28,813 nt of DNA, from NCBI GenBank assembly GCA_023474185.1, contig JAMCXR010000029.1, positions 1 through 28,813 of the forward strand, in the 5' to 3' direction. The translations under genes and the position numbers were made by a program. Of this stretch, positions 21,906 through 28,813 are shown in pieces. The notes beneath the pieces were generated by a model. The model made no database searches. It saw only the letters and a list, made by a program, of their open reading frames with translations, and had not been told where the DNA came from. Position 1 is the first letter of the stretch. Each line of letters opens with the position of its first letter. This DNA comes from Patescibacteria group bacterium. GTDB taxonomy: Bacteria > Patescibacteriota > Minisyncoccia > UBA6257 > Colwellbacteraceae.

Positions 21906-24900
21906 TCAGTAGTTTTCTGCCATCCATTTTCTGGTAACCGGCCCGAAGTAGCCGGAAGCCAGACCGATGCCGACAGATTTCTGGTACTCAGCCAGAGCGT
22001 TTTCCGTGATCGGCCCGAAATATCCAGTCGTCCCATACCCACTGAGCACAACCGCCGAATGTCCAGCGTCTTTCGTTATGAGGAATCCCTGAAGAGCGGC
22101 GACATCCCGGCCTTTATCTCCCACGGTTAGATTTCTGACAAAGATAGCCGGAGTGGACGTCGAAAGAACAATCAGAGAATTAACACTAGCCATAGTCAGC
22201 GAATTGAAACTTCCCACTGCGGGAAGTCCGCATTCCAGCTGCAGCTTCTCAACCGCTTTCCGGGTTAGTGGCCCGAAATATCCGGTCACCAAGTCCTGCG
22301 GATATACTCCCAAGTCGAAGAGCACGCGCTGCAGCTTGGCCACCTCTGCGCCTTGCGATCCGAATTGCAAGTAGGATAAAAACGGATGCGCGGCAAACTG
22401 AACCGCAGCGGTGCCTGTCGTTACGGCTGACGATGTCGCCGCGCCGCCAACCGTAAATGCAATTCTCTCTGATTGGGCGATATCACCGTAATCGTCATCG
22501 GCGAATGCCTGCAGAAAATGAGGCCCGGATGCGAAATAAGAAAGAGGCAAAGTCAGAGAGTATGGCGGAGCGGAAAGAGTGTTTTCCACCTTGTGGCCGT
22601 CTACCGCAAACCAGAAGAAAGAAATTTGGGAAGTATTGTCCGCGGAAGCAAAAAACGTAATCGACGACGAGGACACGGAAGGAGCGTTTAGCAAGATGTT
22701 GCTGAACTGCGAAACGTTAGGCCCGCCTCCGACTGCGACGCTCGCACCGCTCACTGCCACCTGGGCGGTATAGGTGACGAAGGGAGTGAAGTGCTTGGTC
22801 CAGACGATTAAGTCCGAGCCGGAATTTATGTAACAGTCCCCTCCCTCGACTAAAGTGTTTCCGTTAGTCTGAGAATCTCCGGAGCACTTTGTGGAAATGT
22901 TTTCAAACTTTCCGGAATTATCGATATAACCCACAAACTTCCCGGCCTCGCCGGCGAGACTCAGCCTCACGGCCTGGCTGAAAGTGGTGGCGGTGTTGCT
23001 GACACCCAACTCTATCGCTGCCGATTGGGCGGGAGAGGTGTATCCGGAAGGAGGGGTAATGGTAATGGAGTTAATATAAGAAGTCGGGAGGTTCAAAATG
23101 CCGTTCCAGGAAGAAGAGGCCACGGTAATGGTGGTGGAGGCCGGCAGCTGAACGTTGACCGAAATTTGGGTGGTGGTAGCGTTGATTACCACAGGATTAG
23201 ATATCGTACTCACCGTCGAGGTTGTCGTAGTGGAAGTCAGGAGGGAAACGTTCAGAGTCGGAGTCGTCACCGTTGAGGGAACGTTAATGGTGGAAGTTGC
23301 CGTTAAACCGGGAGTAAGAGCCGCGGATGAGGAGGCATCGGACAAGGTAATCGTGGAGGTGGAATCGGACATTACGACGGTGGAAGTGGTTCCGCTCGAC
23401 GGAGGATTGAGAACGTAGAGAGTGAAGCTTTGCGGATCCGAGGTAATAGTGCCGATGGTTCCGTTATTGTCGGCGGCAGTGAGAGAAAAATTATAGGCTC
23501 CAGCCACAGTTGACGTTCCTGAAAGGGTTGTCCCGGAAAGAGTAAGTGGCGTAGAGCCTGGAGATAAAGACAAACTGGCTGTGCCTTGAGAGGAAGTAGA
23601 GGTGATGGTTTGAGAAAAGAATAAATTAGTGAACGTAGTAGCAGTGGGCAACGGTAGAATATTCACAACTTTATATTCGAGTAAGCGATTATTACCGTTA
23701 TCGGTTACAAATAATCTGGAATAAGTAGGGTCATAAACCACTCTCAATGGATAATCTAAACCAGTTTGAGTTGCGCTGGCTCCTGACGAATAAGCTAAGC
23801 CGGGGGCACTGGTTACTCCGGTGTTAGTCGTAAAATTCGACTGACCTATAACGAAATTTGCACTCTCATCATTAGTAATGGTGGAAGTAGCTGCATTGAA
23901 GACTAAAACGCGATTATTGCCACGATCAGCAACAAATAATTGAGAGCTGGCAGAGTCATAAGATAAGCCAGACGACTCATATAATCCGCTCTGACTGGTA
24001 GTAATAGTGCGAGTTGTAAACCCAGTCTGTCCCAAGACATAGGAGGCGTTTTCCCCGTTAGAGATAGTGGAGGTAGCGGCGTTGAAGACGAGAACGCGAT
24101 TGTTTCCGTAATCCGCGACAAACAGCCGGGAATTAACCGAATCGTAAGCCAAACCATATGGTTCATACAACCCGCTTTGGGTGGTGGCGCTACCGTTATT
24201 TGTAAACCCAGTCTGTCCCAAGACATAGGAGGCATTCTCTCCGTCACTAACGGTAGAGGTGGCAACGTTGAAGACAAGGATTCGGTTATTGCCTTCATCA
24301 GCCACAAAAAGAAGTGAATTTGCCGAATCATACGCCAGTCCGTACGGGGTATTCATCCCGCTTCGGGTGGTGGTCGCCGTACCAGTAGAGAAACTGGACT
24401 GGCCTAAAATATAAATGGGAGTTGTTGTGGAAATGTTGTCGTTGGAATCCAGTTGGAAAACAAGCACTCTATTGTTACTTGAATCGGAAACGAACAACCT
24501 GTGATTGGCCGGATCGACAACCGACCCCGACGGAGAATAGAAACCAGCTGAACTCGGGCCATTGTTGGGACCGTTTTTGATATAACTTGCGGAACCATTA
24601 TCGTCATACTGTCCTATTAGACCGCTCGCATTTTCGCCATCGGCAATGGTAGAAGTCGAAACGTTAAATGCGAGGACGCGGCTGTTATTAGTATCGACCA
24701 CAAACAGGCGAGAGGTCGTTGAATCATAAGCAAGTCCGATGGGAGAAGTCATTCCGCTTTGACTCGCAGCACTAGCGGCAGCCACAAAATTTACCTGTCC
24801 CAAAACATAGGAAGCATTCTCTCCGTTACTAATGGTCGAAGTAGCGACGTTGAAGACCAAGACTCTGTTGTTAGGTGAATCAGAAACAAACAAGCGCGCG

Positions 24901-25874
24901 TTTATAGAGTCATAGGCCAAATCACGCGGATTACGCAACCCGCTTTGGGTGGTGGCGCTACCGTTATTTGTAAACCCAGTCTGTCCCAAGACATAGGAGG
25001 CGTTTTCGTTGTTAGAGATAGTGGAGGTAGCAGCGTTGAAGACGAGAACGCGATTGTTGCCGTAATCCGCGACGAATAAGCGGGAAAATGTAGGGTCATA
25101 AGATACGGTAAGCGGAGCATTTAGCCCGCTTTGTGTCGTTGTGGCAACATCGGTTGTAAAGCTCGATTGTCCCAAGACATAGGAGGCGTTTTCGTTGTTA
25201 GAAATAGTTGAAGTGGCAACGTTAAAGACCAAAACCCTGTTGTAATAAGAATCGGCGACAAACAGTCGCGAGTCGTTCTGGTCATACGCCAATCCGTACG
25301 GGGACGCCATTCCGCTTTGACTCAGAGCGCCACTTCTGCTTGTGAAATTTACCTGTCCCAAAACATAGGAAGCATTCTCTCCGTTACTAATGGTCGAAGT
25401 AGCGACGTTGAAGACCAAGACTCTGGCATTCCCGGTATCAGCCACAAAAAGACGCGAGTTTACCGGATCATAGGCCAACCCTTCCGGCTGCCACATTAAA
25501 CCTTGAGCGCAACCTCCGGTTGCGTTAGTGAAGCTAATTTCGCCCAAAACATACGCAGGGGTAGTTGTAGTCAGGTTGCCGTTAGAATCAAGTTGGTACA
25601 CCAACACTCTTTCGTTTTCCCAATCGGAGACAAACAATCGATGATTAACTTGATCAATAGCCGTATATCGCGGGTAATACAAACCCGAGGAATTAGGGCC
25701 ACCGTTTGGGTAACTCCCAGTAAAATTACTATTTCCCAAAACTCCGGAAGCGCTGTAAGAAGCGGCAAGTGCAGGTTTAGAAATTATCACTATCAAACCC
25801 AGAAGAATAAAAAGAAGAAACGGTACAAACGGCTTAAGCAAGCATCTTAACTGCTGGTTTTGGTGCTTGTACAT
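21906..25874 (-). CDS. Large secreted surface protein: signal peptide, 11 NHL-like beta-propeller repeats, Ser/Thr-rich stalk, Ig-like domain and two C-terminal peptidoglycan-binding-like domains
   Basis: Hydrophobic N-terminus ending in ALA-A; 11 copies of the (R/L/Q)LFVxDxxNxRVLVF-type motif; C-terminal LQFGSQGAEVAKLQ..TGYFGPLT and LTVGDKGRDVAALQ..TGYFGPIT (PG_binding_1-like). Confidence 0.85.
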   Translation of the reverse strand: MYKHQNQQLRCLLKPFVPFLLFILLGLIVIISKPALAASYSASGVLGNSNFTGSYPNGGPNSSGLYYPRYTAIDQVNHRLFVSDWENERVLVYQLDSNGNLTTTTPAYVLGEISFTNATGGCAQGLMWQPEGLAYDPVNSRLFVADTGNARVLVFNVATSTISNGENASYVLGQVNFTSRSGALSQSGMASPYGLAYDQNDSRLFVADSYYNRVLVFNVATSTISNNENASYVLGQSSFTTDVATTTQSGLNAPLTVSYDPTFSRLFVADYGNNRVLVFNAATSTISNNENASYVLGQTGFTNNGSATTQSGLRNPRDLAYDSINARLFVSDSPNNRVLVFNVATSTISNGENASYVLGQVNFVAAASAASQSGMTSPIGLAYDSTTSRLFVVDTNNSRVLAFNVSTSTIADGENASGLIGQYDDNGSASYIKNGPNNGPSSAGFYSPSGSVVDPANHRLFVSDSSNNRVLVFQLDSNDNISTTTPIYILGQSSFSTGTATTTRSGMNTPYGLAYDSANSLLFVADEGNNRILVFNVATSTVSDGENASYVLGQTGFTNNGSATTQSGLYEPYGLAYDSVNSRLFVADYGNNRVLVFNAATSTISNGENASYVLGQTGFTTRTITTSQSGLYESSGLSYDSASSQLFVADRGNNRVLVFNAATSTITNDESANFVIGQSNFTTNTGVTSAPGLAYSSGASATQTGLDYPLRVVYDPTYSRLFVTDNGNNRLLEYKVVNILPLPTATTFTNLFFSQTITSTSSQGTASLSLSPGSTPLTLSGTTLSGTSTVAGAYNFSLTAADNNGTIGTITSDPQSFTLYVLNPPSSGTTSTVVMSDSTSTITLSDASSSAALTPGLTATSTINVPSTVTTPTLNVSLLTSTTTTSTVSTISNPVVINATTTQISVNVQLPASTTITVASSSWNGILNLPTSYINSITITPPSGYTSPAQSAAIELGVSNTATTFSQAVRLSLAGEAGKFVGYIDNSGKFENISTKCSGDSQTNGNTLVEGGDCYINSGSDLIVWTKHFTPFVTYTAQVAVSGASVAVGGGPNVSQFSNILLNAPSVSSSSITFFASADNTSQISFFWFAVDGHKVENTLSAPPYSLTLPLSYFASGPHFLQAFADDDYGDIAQSERIAFTVGGAATSSAVTTGTAAVQFAAHPFLSYLQFGSQGAEVAKLQRVLFDLGVYPQDLVTGYFGPLTRKAVEKLQLECGLPAVGSFNSLTMASVNSLIVLSTSTPAIFVRNLTVGDKGRDVAALQGFLITKDAGHSAVVLSGYGTTGYFGPITENALAEYQKSVGIGLASGYFGPVTRKWMAENY
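24014..25073. repeat. Direct repeat pair, 106 nt, 5 mismatches: 24014-24119 and 24968-25073
   Basis: Aligned by hand; lies within the NHL repeats. Confidence 0.85.
24168..25001. repeat. Identical 66-nt direct repeat pair: 24168-24233 and 24936-25001
   Basis: caacccgctttgggtggtggcgctacc...cccaagacataggaggc is present twice. Confidence 0.9.
24787..25425. repeat. Identical 81-nt direct repeat pair: 24787-24867 and 25345-25425
   Basis: aaatttacctgtcccaaaacatagg...gaagaccaagactctg is present twice. Confidence 0.9.
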
Positions 25875-25913: not shown

Positions 25914-26549
25914 TTATAAATTCATGAGCAAGCTTCCCGCGCCGCTCCCAGCCAAAACTAAGAAAAGATTGAAGGCCAAGTAAAATATGACTCCGGCTAG
26001 AAGATAAAGCAGAGCAAAAACCAGAAGAAGCCACCAGATGCCAGCTCCTTGAATCATCAGCGAATAGCGCTGGGGAAGGATGGCGGTTAAAACTTTTGAG
26101 CCGTCCAGCGGCGGAACCGGAATCAAATTAAAAATCATCAGCAAGCAGTTGATAAATACCACTATCGCCAGGAACGAATCTGCGGCCGCAGACAAAGGAA
26201 CAAACCTGATGACCAACCCAAATGCCGCGGCTATAACCAAGTTGGAAAGCGGTCCTGCCAGAGCTACTTTGAGCGGCCCGTACTTGTAGTCCTTGTACAA
26301 ATTGTACGGATTATACGGAACCGGCTTCGCCCAACCGACTATGAACGGCGAGTGGCTAAGAAACAAAACGACCGGCAAAACGACAGAACCGATCGGGTCC
26401 AAGTGGCTTAGCGGATTTAAGGTCAACCGGCCCATGTCCTTGGCGGTAGTATCCCCCAAAGCCAGCGCGGCATAACCGTGCGCCACCTCATGAACGACCG
26501 CGGAAAATATCAAAACTATTATGCTGAAAGCGAATACCAGCGAATTCAT
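25914..26549 (-). CDS. Site-2 protease family (peptidase M50) intramembrane zinc metalloprotease
   Basis: HEVAH zinc motif, GRLTLNPLSHLDPIG, GWAKPVP, ALAGPLSN, NLIPVPPLDGSK and multiple TM segments. Confidence 0.93.
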   Translation of the reverse strand: MNSLVFAFSIIVLIFSAVVHEVAHGYAALALGDTTAKDMGRLTLNPLSHLDPIGSVVLPVVLFLSHSPFIVGWAKPVPYNPYNLYKDYKYGPLKVALAGPLSNLVIAAAFGLVIRFVPLSAAADSFLAIVVFINCLLMIFNLIPVPPLDGSKVLTAILPQRYSLMIQGAGIWWLLLVFALLYLLAGVIFYLAFNLFLVLAGSGAGSLLMNL

Positions 26550-26589
26550 TCTTTACATTGTACCCGATTTGCCATATATTAGAAGCCGT
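26550..26589. promoter_or_regulatory. Overlapping divergent promoters in a 40-bp gap: plus TTTACA-N17-TATATT (26552-26580) for rpmB; minus -10 TACAAT (26557-26562) for the M50 protease
   Basis: Hexamers and spacing read directly; the minus-strand -35 is weak. Confidence 0.55.
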
Positions 26590-26781
26590 ATGAAACAGTG
26601 TGAGATTTGCGGCAAGGGATCAATTATGGCCGGAAGGCGGCTAAAGCTGCGCGGCCATTATAATCCTCAAGCACTTGTAAGAAAGCATCCGAATTTGCAA
26701 AAAACCACGCTCCCCGAGGGTAAGCGTATTTTGGCGTGCGCGCAGTGCATAAAAACCTTGGCTAAAAAGAAGAAAGGCTAA
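26590..26781 (+). CDS. rpmB: 50S ribosomal protein bL28 (Cys-containing, zinc-type)
   Basis: MKQCEICGKG...HPNLQ...ACAQCIKT, 63 aa; ATG at 26590 (the ORF track's longer start overlaps the opposite gene). Confidence 0.88.
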   Translation: MKQCEICGKGSIMAGRRLKLRGHYNPQALVRKHPNLQKTTLPEGKRILACAQCIKTLAKKKKG

Positions 26782-26805: not shown

Positions 26806-26876
26806 CGGGCTGTAGTATAACGGCAGTATACACCCTTGGGGTGGGTGCGACCCGGGTTCAATTCCCGGCAGCCCGA
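26806..26876 (+). tRNA. tRNA-Pro(GGG); CCA end not encoded
   Basis: Acceptor stem CGGGCTG/CAGCCCG with discriminator A (C1-G72, A73 typical of Pro); D arm GTAT-AACGGCA-GTAT; anticodon arm CACCC-TTGGGGT-GGGTG; T arm CCGGG-TTCAATT-CCCGG; followed by CAAG. Confidence 0.95.
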
Positions 26877-26880
26877 CAAG

Positions 26881-28116
26881 TTACTGTTTGCTTTTGTTCT
26901 TGATCAAAAACCCTTTCACTCTAATCAAATACCACGAACCCCAAGCCAGAAGCAGAAAAACCGCTAACCCGATAAAAAAGGACAGCGGTCCAACGATCAA
27001 TCCGTCGAAAGTGATAAACGGTATTTCGCGGATTCTGAACTCTGCCGTTTTTTCCGTTCCGTTTCCGGCCTGGTCATACGCCACAACCGTTAGCAGATGA
27101 GAACCGGGAAGCTGCTGGGGCAAAACAATACTGGTGGCAACCGTACTGGTCACTAAATTGCCGTCGATGCTAACGACATAATCGGCGACACCGGATAAGG
27201 CGTCGGAGGCGACATAAAATATCCTGAGACTTAAGGAAGCGGTGGTGTTTCCCCCGCTGATTATGACGCCGAGCTGGGTTGGCGGTTCGGTATCAATCGC
27301 TATTTTATAGTTGGAAACCGGACCCCATCCTTTGTTGTCTTTAAAACGGACGTGGAGATACCATATTCCGTCGTCTAACGGAGGAAAGTTCTCGTTGTCG
27401 AACAATCCCTGAGAAACTGATGGCGTGGTGTTCGGAGACTTGTCCAAAACTGCCGCTACGCCCGTCACAGAATTCGGTAAAGGCCAGCGAGCGTTAAAAT
27501 TAGAGACCTGGTCGTACCACTCGCCGCTCACCGGATAAAACGGAATACTGATTTGGGGAGACGGAGGGAGGCCGGCGATATAAGTTTGGCCGGCCGGCGG
27601 CGCCGGTTGCGCTTCGGCTTGGCTTACGCTTTGCGTGGACGTGCTTTCAATCGAAATTCCGTTCATCGCAGACAACACGTTGGTTCCGCTGCCATTGGCA
27701 GCGGTAGCCGCTCCATCGATAAAGTTAATCGTCGCTTTCCCCGTGCCGATGACCTTGAAGTTGACTTTCAGTGCTTCCAAAGATTGCCCCAATAGGCCGC
27801 TATCCGACCCTCCGATAAAGCTCGCTTGGCCGTCTTCGTTGGAAAATCCCGGCAGCTGAAGCCAAAAAGAAAATACGGAACGGGAATAATCCAAGCTGGT
27901 GATGCTTAGGATGTCTTGGGGGAACTGAATGGTGGCTTGCGCCGCGTTGATGGGGGTGTCCGTAGAATTAATTTTAACGTCCACGGAAAATGTGTCGCCG
28001 ATCTTAACCAGATTTTTGCTGGCGGAGAGGTTGAAGGAAGCCGCTTCCGCAAGATTCCCCCTACAGAGTAAAGCGCCTGATATTATTAGCGCTGCGATTA
28101 TTGCTTTTCTAGTCAT
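26881..28116 (-). CDS. Cohesin-domain surface protein: signal peptide, cohesin-like beta-sandwich, Pro/Gln linker, two Ig-like domains and a C-terminal TM anchor with a basic tail
   Basis: LVKIGDTFSVDVKINS..INAAQATIQFPQDIL..SFIGG..LKVNFKV.GTG.ATINF pattern; YLHVRFKD..GWG..IDTEPP and H.LTVVAYDQAGN Ig-like motifs; hydrophobic C-terminal segment. Confidence 0.75.
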   Translation of the reverse strand: MTRKAIIAALIISGALLCRGNLAEAASFNLSASKNLVKIGDTFSVDVKINSTDTPINAAQATIQFPQDILSITSLDYSRSVFSFWLQLPGFSNEDGQASFIGGSDSGLLGQSLEALKVNFKVIGTGKATINFIDGAATAANGSGTNVLSAMNGISIESTSTQSVSQAEAQPAPPAGQTYIAGLPPSPQISIPFYPVSGEWYDQVSNFNARWPLPNSVTGVAAVLDKSPNTTPSVSQGLFDNENFPPLDDGIWYLHVRFKDNKGWGPVSNYKIAIDTEPPTQLGVIISGGNTTASLSLRIFYVASDALSGVADYVVSIDGNLVTSTVATSIVLPQQLPGSHLLTVVAYDQAGNGTEKTAEFRIREIPFITFDGLIVGPLSFFIGLAVFLLLAWGSWYLIRVKGFLIKNKSKQ

Positions 28117-28132
28117 TTTAATTTTTTATATT

Positions 28133-28813
28133 CTAAGCTGGTTTTAAAGTTCTCACAAAAATGGAAAAGTCCTGGACGTCGACCTTGCCGTCGCCGTTCA
28201 AGTCGTCCAGCGCTCTTACTTTAGGATCCGGCGACAGCCAGCGGCTGAGAAATATACTCCAGTCTCTGATGTCTACCACCCCGTCATTGTTGAAGTCGAC
28301 TTGGGGAACTAAGAGGCTGGTGACATAGAAAACTTTTTGCAGGGAAAAAGCGCTGCCGAAAGTTCCCGATTCCCTAACGCACAACGTATGGCTGTCTATC
28401 CCCAAACTCCCCGTCGGGTAAAGCAGGCGATAAAACCCGCTGCTGTCGGCAATTGTTTGTTGTGATATAGGCTTCCCGTCGACTTCGAGTTGCAAAACAG
28501 AATTGGGAACGGCGTATCCGGTTATAATTAATTTTCCGCCTTTGGTCACCGTCGACTGAGAGAAACCGACCGTTGGAGGAAGTAAAATATTTTTGATATC
28601 CAACACGTTGGCCTGGTTTTTGACCTTAATCCAATAGACCACGGCCTGTGTCGATCTTCCTTGTGGATCTATAGCCGTTACGCCAAAAGCCCTGTCCCCC
28701 GCAGGAAGCCCGCTGACAAAATTAACTTGGAAGCTGCCCGTATCTCGGTCGGCTGTTCCGCTTCTTAAAATAATAGTAGACGTTCCCAAAGCTAGAAGCG
28801 GAACAGCCGACCG
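28133..28813 (-). CDS. Dockerin-domain protein (Ig-like domains plus a C-terminal duplicated EF-hand-like dockerin); 5' end probably beyond the window
   Basis: DFNNDGVVDIRDWSIF and DLNGDGKVDVQDFSIF form the duplicated Ca-loop-helix pattern. The frame stays open upstream of the TTG at 28789 to the window edge (RSAVPLLALG...) and no signal peptide is visible. Confidence 0.75.
   Translation of the reverse strand, partial: RSAVPLLALGTSTIILRSGTADRDTGSFQVNFVSGLPAGDRAFGVTAIDPQGRSTQAVVYWIKVKNQANVLDIKNILLPPTVGFSQSTVTKGGKLIITGYAVPNSVLQLEVDGKPISQQTIADSSGFYRLLYPTGSLGIDSHTLCVRESGTFGSAFSLQKVFYVTSLLVPQVDFNNDGVVDIRDWSIFLSRWLSPDPKVRALDDLNGDGKVDVQDFSIFVRTLKPA
28746..28813. repeat. Perfect 20-bp inverted repeat (28746-28765 / 28794-28813) ending exactly at the window edge
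   Basis: cggtcggctgttccgcttct versus agaagcggaacagccgaccg, with a 28-nt spacer. Confidence 0.9.

Follow-up and report, generated by a model that had tools for sequence, protein, structure and literature searches.

A dockerin-ended repeat protein gene beside a membrane-anchored cohesin gene in a reduced Patescibacteria genome, a candidate one-to-one surface tether

Cohesins and dockerins are the module types of cellulosomes, and non-cellulosomal cohesin-dockerin pairs are already known. In the single-cohesin cellulosome anchors OlpA, OlpC and SdbA of Acetivibrio thermocellus and ScaE of Ruminococcus flavefaciens, a cell-bound protein uses its one cohesin to hold a partner ending in a dockerin at the surface. 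The glycosidase and toxin complexes of Clostridium perfringens and the cohesin of Archaeoglobus fulgidus take the pair of modules outside cellulose degradation, and in type II X-module-dockerin dyads (CipA XDoc-SdbA; A. cellulolyticus ScaA XDoc-ScaB) an Ig-like module stands directly before the dockerin. The locus described here lies on contig JAMCXR010000029.1 of assembly GCA_023474185.1, from a bacterium of the Patescibacteria, or Candidate Phyla Radiation (CPR), and the whole of this 28,813-nt contig (C20 of the assembly) is referred to as the window. The source genome, assembled from mine tailings metagenomes, comprises 503 kb in 36 contigs and is 91% complete. At the end of the window, gene A encodes the last part of a secreted repeat protein with a C-terminal dockerin, and gene B encodes a protein with an N-terminal cohesin and a C-terminal transmembrane (TM) helix (Table 1). 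New here is the combination of a TM-anchored single cohesin with an adjacent, single, non-enzymatic giant dockerin protein, together with its conservation through the Patescibacteria.

Domain composition of the two proteins

The gene A fragment runs through an Ig-like domain, a Bap/Big_6-like Ig domain and a dockerin, and shares 59% identity with the C-terminal end of a complete same-genus orthologue of 1411 aa. Pfam Dockerin_1 (PF00404) matches the gene A protein with 30.1 bits (E 5.4e-7), and a six-frame search of the genome gives 32.5 bits, both above the cut-off of 22.9. A family profile of the dockerin end, built from an alignment of 18 members, matches solved dockerins (2y3n_B, E 2.6e-9; also 4fl4_A, 1daq and 2vn6), and the Ig-dockerin family profile matches the Bap Ig repeats of 7dm0_A (E 2.2e-9). 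The protein ends with two duplicated segments, DFNNDGVVDIRDWSIF (residues 173-188) and DLNGDGKVDVQDFSIF (residues 204-219), in which both 12-residue loops fit D-x-N-x-D-G-x-x-D-x-x-D and are each followed by a helix starting [WF]-S-I-F. Among the 18 aligned members, D173 and D184 of the first loop, D208 and D215 of the second, and S217 and I218 of the second helix are invariant. Two tandem segments of ~22 residues, each with an EF-hand-like calcium loop (D1, N/D3, D5, D/N9, D12) and a helix, are the hallmark of dockerins. Judged by these sequence features, gene A ends in a true dockerin, which would be expected to fold and to bind a cohesin in a calcium-dependent manner.

Full-length orthologues of gene A range from 624 to 3200 aa and have a signal peptide and repeats. 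The N-terminal regions of these relatives are variable (one has six YDG domains and Big_3_5, two have three fn3 domains), and the Ig-Ig-dockerin end is conserved across them. No catalytic domains were found in the full-length relatives, and Pfam searches found no glycoside hydrolase or carbohydrate-binding module (CBM) in the gene A fragment or in the six orthologues available at full length (624-1600 aa). The complete same-genus orthologue (L047:5740-9975) has a signal peptide and tandem repeats of ~332 aa, and the dockerin is its sole Pfam match; searches of the ESM Atlas and of PDB sequences with this protein were uninformative. Four contigs of the same genus (L045, L047, L048 and L049) carry dockerin protein calls of 388, 664+, 749 and 1411 aa, which share a C-terminal stretch of ~320-390 aa that is ~99% identical, the signal peptide being present in the 1411-aa call only. 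These differences in length reflect either real variation in repeat number or repeats collapsed in short-read assemblies.

Gene B is complete and was modelled by AlphaFold2 (AF2) from a 31-sequence alignment with a pLDDT (predicted local distance difference test score) of 90.4. Modelled alone (residues 24-162), the cohesin domain reaches a pLDDT of 95.6 and shows no helix. The best 50 matches of this model in a Foldseek search of the PDB are all cohesins, with the type II cohesins 5k39, 3l8q and 1qzn also ranking high. In the VIA structural scan, which is independent of Foldseek and covered 48,161 chains, the top 16 are again all cohesins (Z 13.5-16.1). At the head of this list stand 2vo8 and 2w1n of C. 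perfringens and 2xdh of A. fulgidus, all non-cellulosomal, together with type I cohesins; the best match to any other fold has Z 13.2, and pilin domains lie near Z 10. At the sequence level, gene B aligns to positions 3-127 of the 139 in the Pfam Cohesin model (PF00963) with 21.1-23.8 bits. The same model matches 15 of 33 family members at E<=1e-3 (best E 5.6e-10), and a homologue in genome G021 scores 30.4 bits, above the cut-off. The predicted fold of the N-terminal domain is unambiguously that of a cohesin, the flattened jelly-roll beta-sandwich of nine strands. Strands 8-3-6-5 form the classical dockerin-binding sheet of cohesins, and the near-invariant strand residues of the family lie mostly on strands 3, 5, 6 and 8, a trend with p 0.08 versus the other sheet.

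The signal peptide of gene B is probably cleaved after AEA, and an AxA/A motif is kept before strand 1 in its relatives. In the first Ig-like spacer W200, W211, G250, H255 and G263 are invariant, and relatives give Y_Y_Y matches; the second is matched weakly by Pfam Big_13 in gene B, with 39-46 bits in relatives, and its PDB profile matches are 7dm0 and 2yn3. By the positive-inside rule, the short basic tail would be cytoplasmic and the remainder of the protein outside. Neither SLH (S-layer homology) repeats nor an LPXTG signal was found in gene B, the only SLH match in its own genome being on another contig. No sortase was found in that genome, which makes an anchoring route other than sortase plausible. 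A lipoprotein anchor was considered and rejected, as ALLC is not a canonical lipobox and AEA/A is a conserved signal-peptidase I site in relatives. A cytoplasmic tail of ~80 aa follows the TM helix in 27 of 31 family members, and a third Ig domain is present in the forms of ~560-620 aa. The gene B protein and its two closest relatives (410-411 aa) have neither, and the anchor in this genus is a reduced form.

These results agree with the initial annotation, made from the letters alone, on most of its structural calls. It had read the pair as two co-directional genes, 16 nt apart, of which the first is incomplete, had recognised the dockerin of the upstream gene, and had laid out gene B as a signal peptide, a cohesin, two Ig-like spacers and a TM anchor, all of which the sequence and the AF2 model bear out. 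The alternative that it had named for the N-terminal domain of gene B, a CBM or a generic Ig fold, is not what the two structural searches returned.

Copy number and linkage across genomes

Searches with Pfam Dockerin_1, Pfam Cohesin and two family profiles found exactly one dockerin and one cohesin in the source genome, a count that is subject to its completeness of 91%. No multi-cohesin scaffoldin was found, gene B and its genome each having a single cohesin. This one-to-one copy number does not support the proposal of the initial annotation that other dockerin-bearing genes would supply interchangeable payloads, at least in this genome, and in place of the modular coat suggested there the pair looks like a dedicated one-to-one tether. 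With one dockerin gene and one cohesin gene, the window holds the most reduced form seen.

Linkage of the two genes was followed at two levels. In an order-level sample of 61 genomes, a gene B homologue is present in 30, and in 27 of these 30 (G000 included) the gene immediately preceding it on the same strand is a homologue of gene A or encodes a dockerin. In a phylum-wide sample of 301 evenly drawn genomes, the cohesin profile matches 99 genomes and Dockerin_1 matches 104. Pair counts at this level cover the 47 genomes with listed cohesin matches, together with the listed dockerins: a listed dockerin lies on the same strand no more than 1 kb upstream in at least 31 of the 47, and no more than 300 nt upstream in at least 25. 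Several of the remaining genomes without a listed pair are contig-edge cases. By position alone, such pairing would be expected in ~0.2% of genomes (for a genome of ~0.7 Mb with one or two dockerins). What the counts record is a dockerin-then-cohesin arrangement retained over the long term, and the linkage across genomes, whose absence the initial annotation had named as refuting its reading, is conserved.

Contigs of the same genus from other samples carry a cohesin gene 55-56% identical to gene B. The order at the same-genus locus is VKOR, TspO, dockerin gene, cohesin gene, LamG pseudopilin, M50 peptidase and rpsL, which is the neighbourhood of the window as well, except that the window is without the pseudopilin and has instead L28, tRNA-Pro and a 1322-aa NHL-repeat protein. 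LamG-domain pseudopilins are numerous in the source genome, with tblastn matches on ~20 contigs, of which ~10 cover the LamG domain (C5, C7, C8, C9, C11, C17, C19, C23, C26 and C34). Many of these copies are found where contigs end, and the break in the assembly seems to be caused by their conserved N-terminal pilin segment.

Other relatives have a three-gene form, consisting of a 340-aa dockerin protein (ending in ...DFSIMAFYWTG), a 300-aa cohesin-TM protein and a 580-aa cohesin protein. This form occurs at L041 (G057:C7:1-9500) and L042 (G020:C12:1-9500), where TM-anchored and secreted proteins precede the cassette and give a faint match to a WxL-interacting protein (E 0.0099).

The gene B family is large, with at least 1008 representatives of 50%-identity clusters at E<=1e-30, most of which have the same N-terminal cohesin-Ig-Ig layout, and its source names include Yonath-, Falkow- and Liptonbacteria. 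A search for related loci with a single protein returned only an unrelated Ig match. In the literature searched, no published description of a TM-anchored cohesin and giant dockerin pair was found. The claim of the initial annotation that the system is undescribed holds to that extent, and is tempered by the size of the family.

Proposed function and alternative explanations

Considering the observed domain identities, topology signals, one-to-one copy number and phylum-wide linkage, the gene pair is probably a minimal, non-cellulosomal, membrane-anchored cohesin-dockerin tether for one fibrillar surface protein. Gene B would be exported by Sec and retained in the membrane by its C-terminal helix, with the basic tail inside, and its single cohesin would be held away from the membrane on the flexible linker and the two Ig-like spacers. 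The gene A product would be a long secreted repeat protein without an enzyme domain, whose C-terminal Ig-dockerin unit would plug into the gene B cohesin, thus mounting the gene A fibre non-covalently on the cell surface. We infer that the two modules bind each other in a calcium-dependent manner and that the mounted fibre is adhesive, most likely serving attachment to a host cell, a particle or a partner.

Several points weigh against or qualify this interpretation. The single complex prediction (cohesin residues 24-162 with dockerin residues 160-226) gave a score of 0.02, which is rated neither as support nor as evidence against. The linkage among related genomes is inherited, and the counts are not independent events. 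The window cohesin scores just below the Pfam gathering score of 24.1 bits, the N-terminal part of gene A is absent from both the window and the assembly, and the adhesin role is proposed from domain types alone. Furthermore, in many Patescibacteria no cohesin can be detected next to the dockerin, as is the case for SEML1_0315 of Southlakia (Saccharibacteria), an essential dockerin protein whose gene has a hydrolase gene and a tRNA gene as neighbours and no cohesin neighbour. The many dockerins of this kind indicate that dockerins can work without a neighbouring cohesin gene, and the paper on the essential Saccharibacteria protein, given its lack of a cohesin neighbour, does not describe this cassette.

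Dockerins that stand alone in this way would suit an arrangement without any binding between the two modules. In that case the dockerin, as a calcium-stabilised C-terminal module, would have another target (for instance a host surface, a glycan, or a cohesin-like domain carried by a different cell), the cohesin-like domain of gene B would have a ligand of its own, and membership of one surface-protein operon would be the only reason for the two genes to be neighbours. Family counts are in keeping with such independence, given that in one family (f40) dockerins occur in 5 of 6 genomes versus a cohesin in 1 of 6, and in another (f55) cohesin-like matches occur in 14 of 14 genomes versus dockerins in 2 of 14; in addition, binding within the pair is itself argued by inference, the complex prediction having returned no verdict. 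However, the dockerin-then-cohesin order is kept with a spacing of 18-300 nt across the phylum-level sample, the copy number in the source genome is one to one, and to our knowledge mutual binding is the only established function of the cohesin and dockerin folds together. On balance, separate ligands for the two modules seem unlikely.

The larger loci of other Paceibacteria, with WxL/Csc-like proteins, extra small cohesin anchors, ABC transporters or pseudopilins, raise the question of whether the pair is the surviving core of a bigger surface-fibre or pilus-associated apparatus. The three-gene form with its upstream WxL-interacting-protein-like genes (the weak match given above) and the LamG pseudopilin gene after the cohesin in the same genus could be read in this way, as could the ~80-aa cytoplasmic tail of most relatives, which hints at a cytoplasmic partner. 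Against it, a search of the source genome found no WxL-like, WxLIP-like or small-cohesin homologues and no accessory ABC genes, the LamG pilin gene is not at the window locus, and the cytoplasmic tail is cut to 12 residues. The pair therefore stands alone beside housekeeping genes, and it is quite improbable that it is the surviving piece of such an apparatus. Least probable by far is a cellulosome-like display of enzymes for polysaccharide degradation, which the module types would call to mind; with one cohesin and one dockerin only, no multi-cohesin scaffoldin, and no glycoside hydrolase, CBM or other catalytic domain in the gene A fragment or the six full-length orthologues, this reading was rejected, and the non-cellulosomal context seen by the initial annotation stands.

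A dedicated and conserved two-component tether of this type, made of well-understood modules, would offer a concrete hypothesis for the attachment of ultra-small CPR bacteria to partner cells, of which little is known beyond type IV pili. For work on localisation and host range in the few Patescibacteria in culture, anchor and fibre would also offer a handle. Moreover, the known uses of cohesin-dockerin pairs would be widened by one in which the pair anchors a non-enzymatic fibre to the membrane, one to one, in a genome of 0.5 Mb with room for few genes. As a more speculative extension, which we put forward tentatively and hold to be rather doubtful, a membrane-anchored cohesin with a dockerin-ended giant protein might be the general sortase-independent mount of the main host-contact fibre in Paceibacteria and many other Patescibacteria. 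With such a join, the anchor could remain in place when the variable fibre is shed or swapped for another, and the episymbiotic lifestyle would depend on the pair.

Assembly context and comparison with known systems

Both genes are on the minus strand, and no Shine-Dalgarno sequence or terminator was found by inspection and scanning of the 16-nt spacer between them (Table 1). Given this short spacer without a terminator, co-transcription of genes A and B is likely.

Table 1. Positions of the gene pair, its modules and neighbouring genes in the window.
Feature	Position	Strand	Description
Gene A	28133-28813	-	C-terminal 226 codons and stop codon of a secreted repeat protein, truncated 5' by the end of the contig
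Ig-like domain before the dockerin (residues 81-167)	28313-28573	-	Conserved in all family members; X-module-like position
Dockerin module (residues 168-226, last 59)	28136-28312	-	Pfam PF00404 and profile matches to solved dockerins
Predicted Ca-binding loop 1 (residues 173-184)	28262-28297	-	DFNNDGVVDIRD, then helix WSIFLSRW; from translation
Predicted Ca-binding loop 2 (residues 204-215)	28169-28204	-	DLNGDGKVDVQD, then helix FSIFVRTL; from translation
Intergenic spacer	28117-28132	-	16 nt, A/T-rich, aatataaaaaattaaa; stop of gene A to start of gene B
Gene B	26881-28116	-	Complete; 411-aa type I membrane protein carrying the cohesin
Signal peptide (residues 1-25)	28042-28116	-	MTRK..., N-terminal helix; basic/hydrophobic, ends AEA
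Cohesin domain (residues 26-161)	27634-28041	-	Compact all-beta, type-I-like, 136 aa
Linker (residues 162-185)	27562-27633	-	Pro/Gln/Ala-rich, disordered/flexible; pLDDT <50 at residues 162-170
Ig-like spacer 1 (residues 186-276)	27289-27561	-	Y_Y_Y-like, motif DGIWYLHVRFKDNKGWGP; AF2 strands
Ig-like spacer 2 (residues 277-365)	27022-27288	-	Big_13/Bap-like beta-sandwich
Transmembrane helix (residues 374-399)	26920-26997	-	Hydrophobic stretch; AF2 helix 377-410
Basic tail (residues 400-411)	26884-26919	-	VKGFLIKNKSKQ; 12 residues, putatively cytoplasmic
tRNA-Pro(GGG) gene	26806-26877	+	Convergent to gene B, 3 nt beyond its stop
L28-like ORF	26521-26781	+	Ribosomal protein; listed start probably too early, a later ATG gives MKQCEICGKG...
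NHL-repeat protein gene	21906-25874	-	1322-aa secreted protein, nine NHL repeats and two PG_binding_1 domains

With six full-length relatives and the 1411-aa orthologue as queries, the absent N-terminal portion of gene A was not found elsewhere in the source assembly. The search matched just the known C-terminal fragment, and the ORFs left open at contig ends gave no convincing candidate. Some of the missing 5' part was recovered from independent Logan contigs of two runs, which diverge from the window after 28797 and extend the reading frame of gene A by 232 nt, in conflict with the final 16 nt of the window (28798-28813). In frame, 30 letters of this continuation read LAYPGAKIN-I, in agreement with KINILAF of the same-genus orthologue. 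Since the continuation is in frame and matches the orthologue, the last 16 nt of the window appear to be an alternative or erroneous branch, either repeat-induced or an artefact. The long repeats of gene A would explain why the assembly breaks inside it. Two other contigs of the genome (C7 and C15) both end in the same signal-peptide protein start (…FxNPTQSPPNGTPGPISVTDGGTGASTVSGARSNLGAAASGANTDITS), which represents a further repeated surface-protein gene that breaks the assembly.

On the other side of the pair, Logan contigs break at the tRNA-Pro gene, with many alternative continuations. No listed Logan piece spans 26880-26953, and the join between gene B and the tRNA gene rests on the assembly and on same-genus synteny. 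The gene for the 1322-aa NHL-repeat protein, which lies between the M50 peptidase gene and rpsL, has no counterpart at that place on the same-genus contigs.

Among described systems, the single-cohesin anchors share the basic arrangement of the window pair, and the predicted gene B cohesin fold resembles theirs (4dh2 of OlpC, Z 15.1; 3ul4 of OlpA, Z 14.3; 2zf9 of ScaE, Z 11.0). However, the anchor of gene B is a C-terminal TM helix instead of the SLH repeats or sortase signal of OlpA, OlpC, SdbA and ScaE, and the partner of gene B would be a single non-enzymatic repeat protein instead of an enzyme-loaded scaffoldin, in a 0.5-Mb CPR bacterium.

The closest folds are those of the non-cellulosomal cohesins (2vo8, Z 16.1; 2w1n, Z 15.6; 2xdh of A. 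fulgidus, Z 15.4), and in 2w1n of C. perfringens an FN3/Ig domain comes after the cohesin, much as in gene B. In C. perfringens (2vo8, 2w1n, 2jh2, 2ozn) the modules sit on secreted enzymes and link them, whereas in the window pair one partner is membrane-anchored and no enzyme is found on either. Also unlike the C. perfringens complexes, the window genes form a conserved two-gene cassette.

The Ig-dockerin end of gene A recalls the type II X-module-dockerin dyads (4wi0/4u3s/2b59), since the Ig-dockerin family profile aligns across the X-module and dockerin of 4wi0_B (A. cellulolyticus ScaA XDoc) with E 1.2e-5, which is a resemblance only and not a class assignment. The role would also be the same, the anchoring of a large protein to the cell. 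Type II cohesins have a helix and flaps as added features. Among the differences from the dyads, the cohesin of gene B is compact (136 aa) and helix-free in the model, and its best VIA matches are to C. perfringens and type I cohesins.

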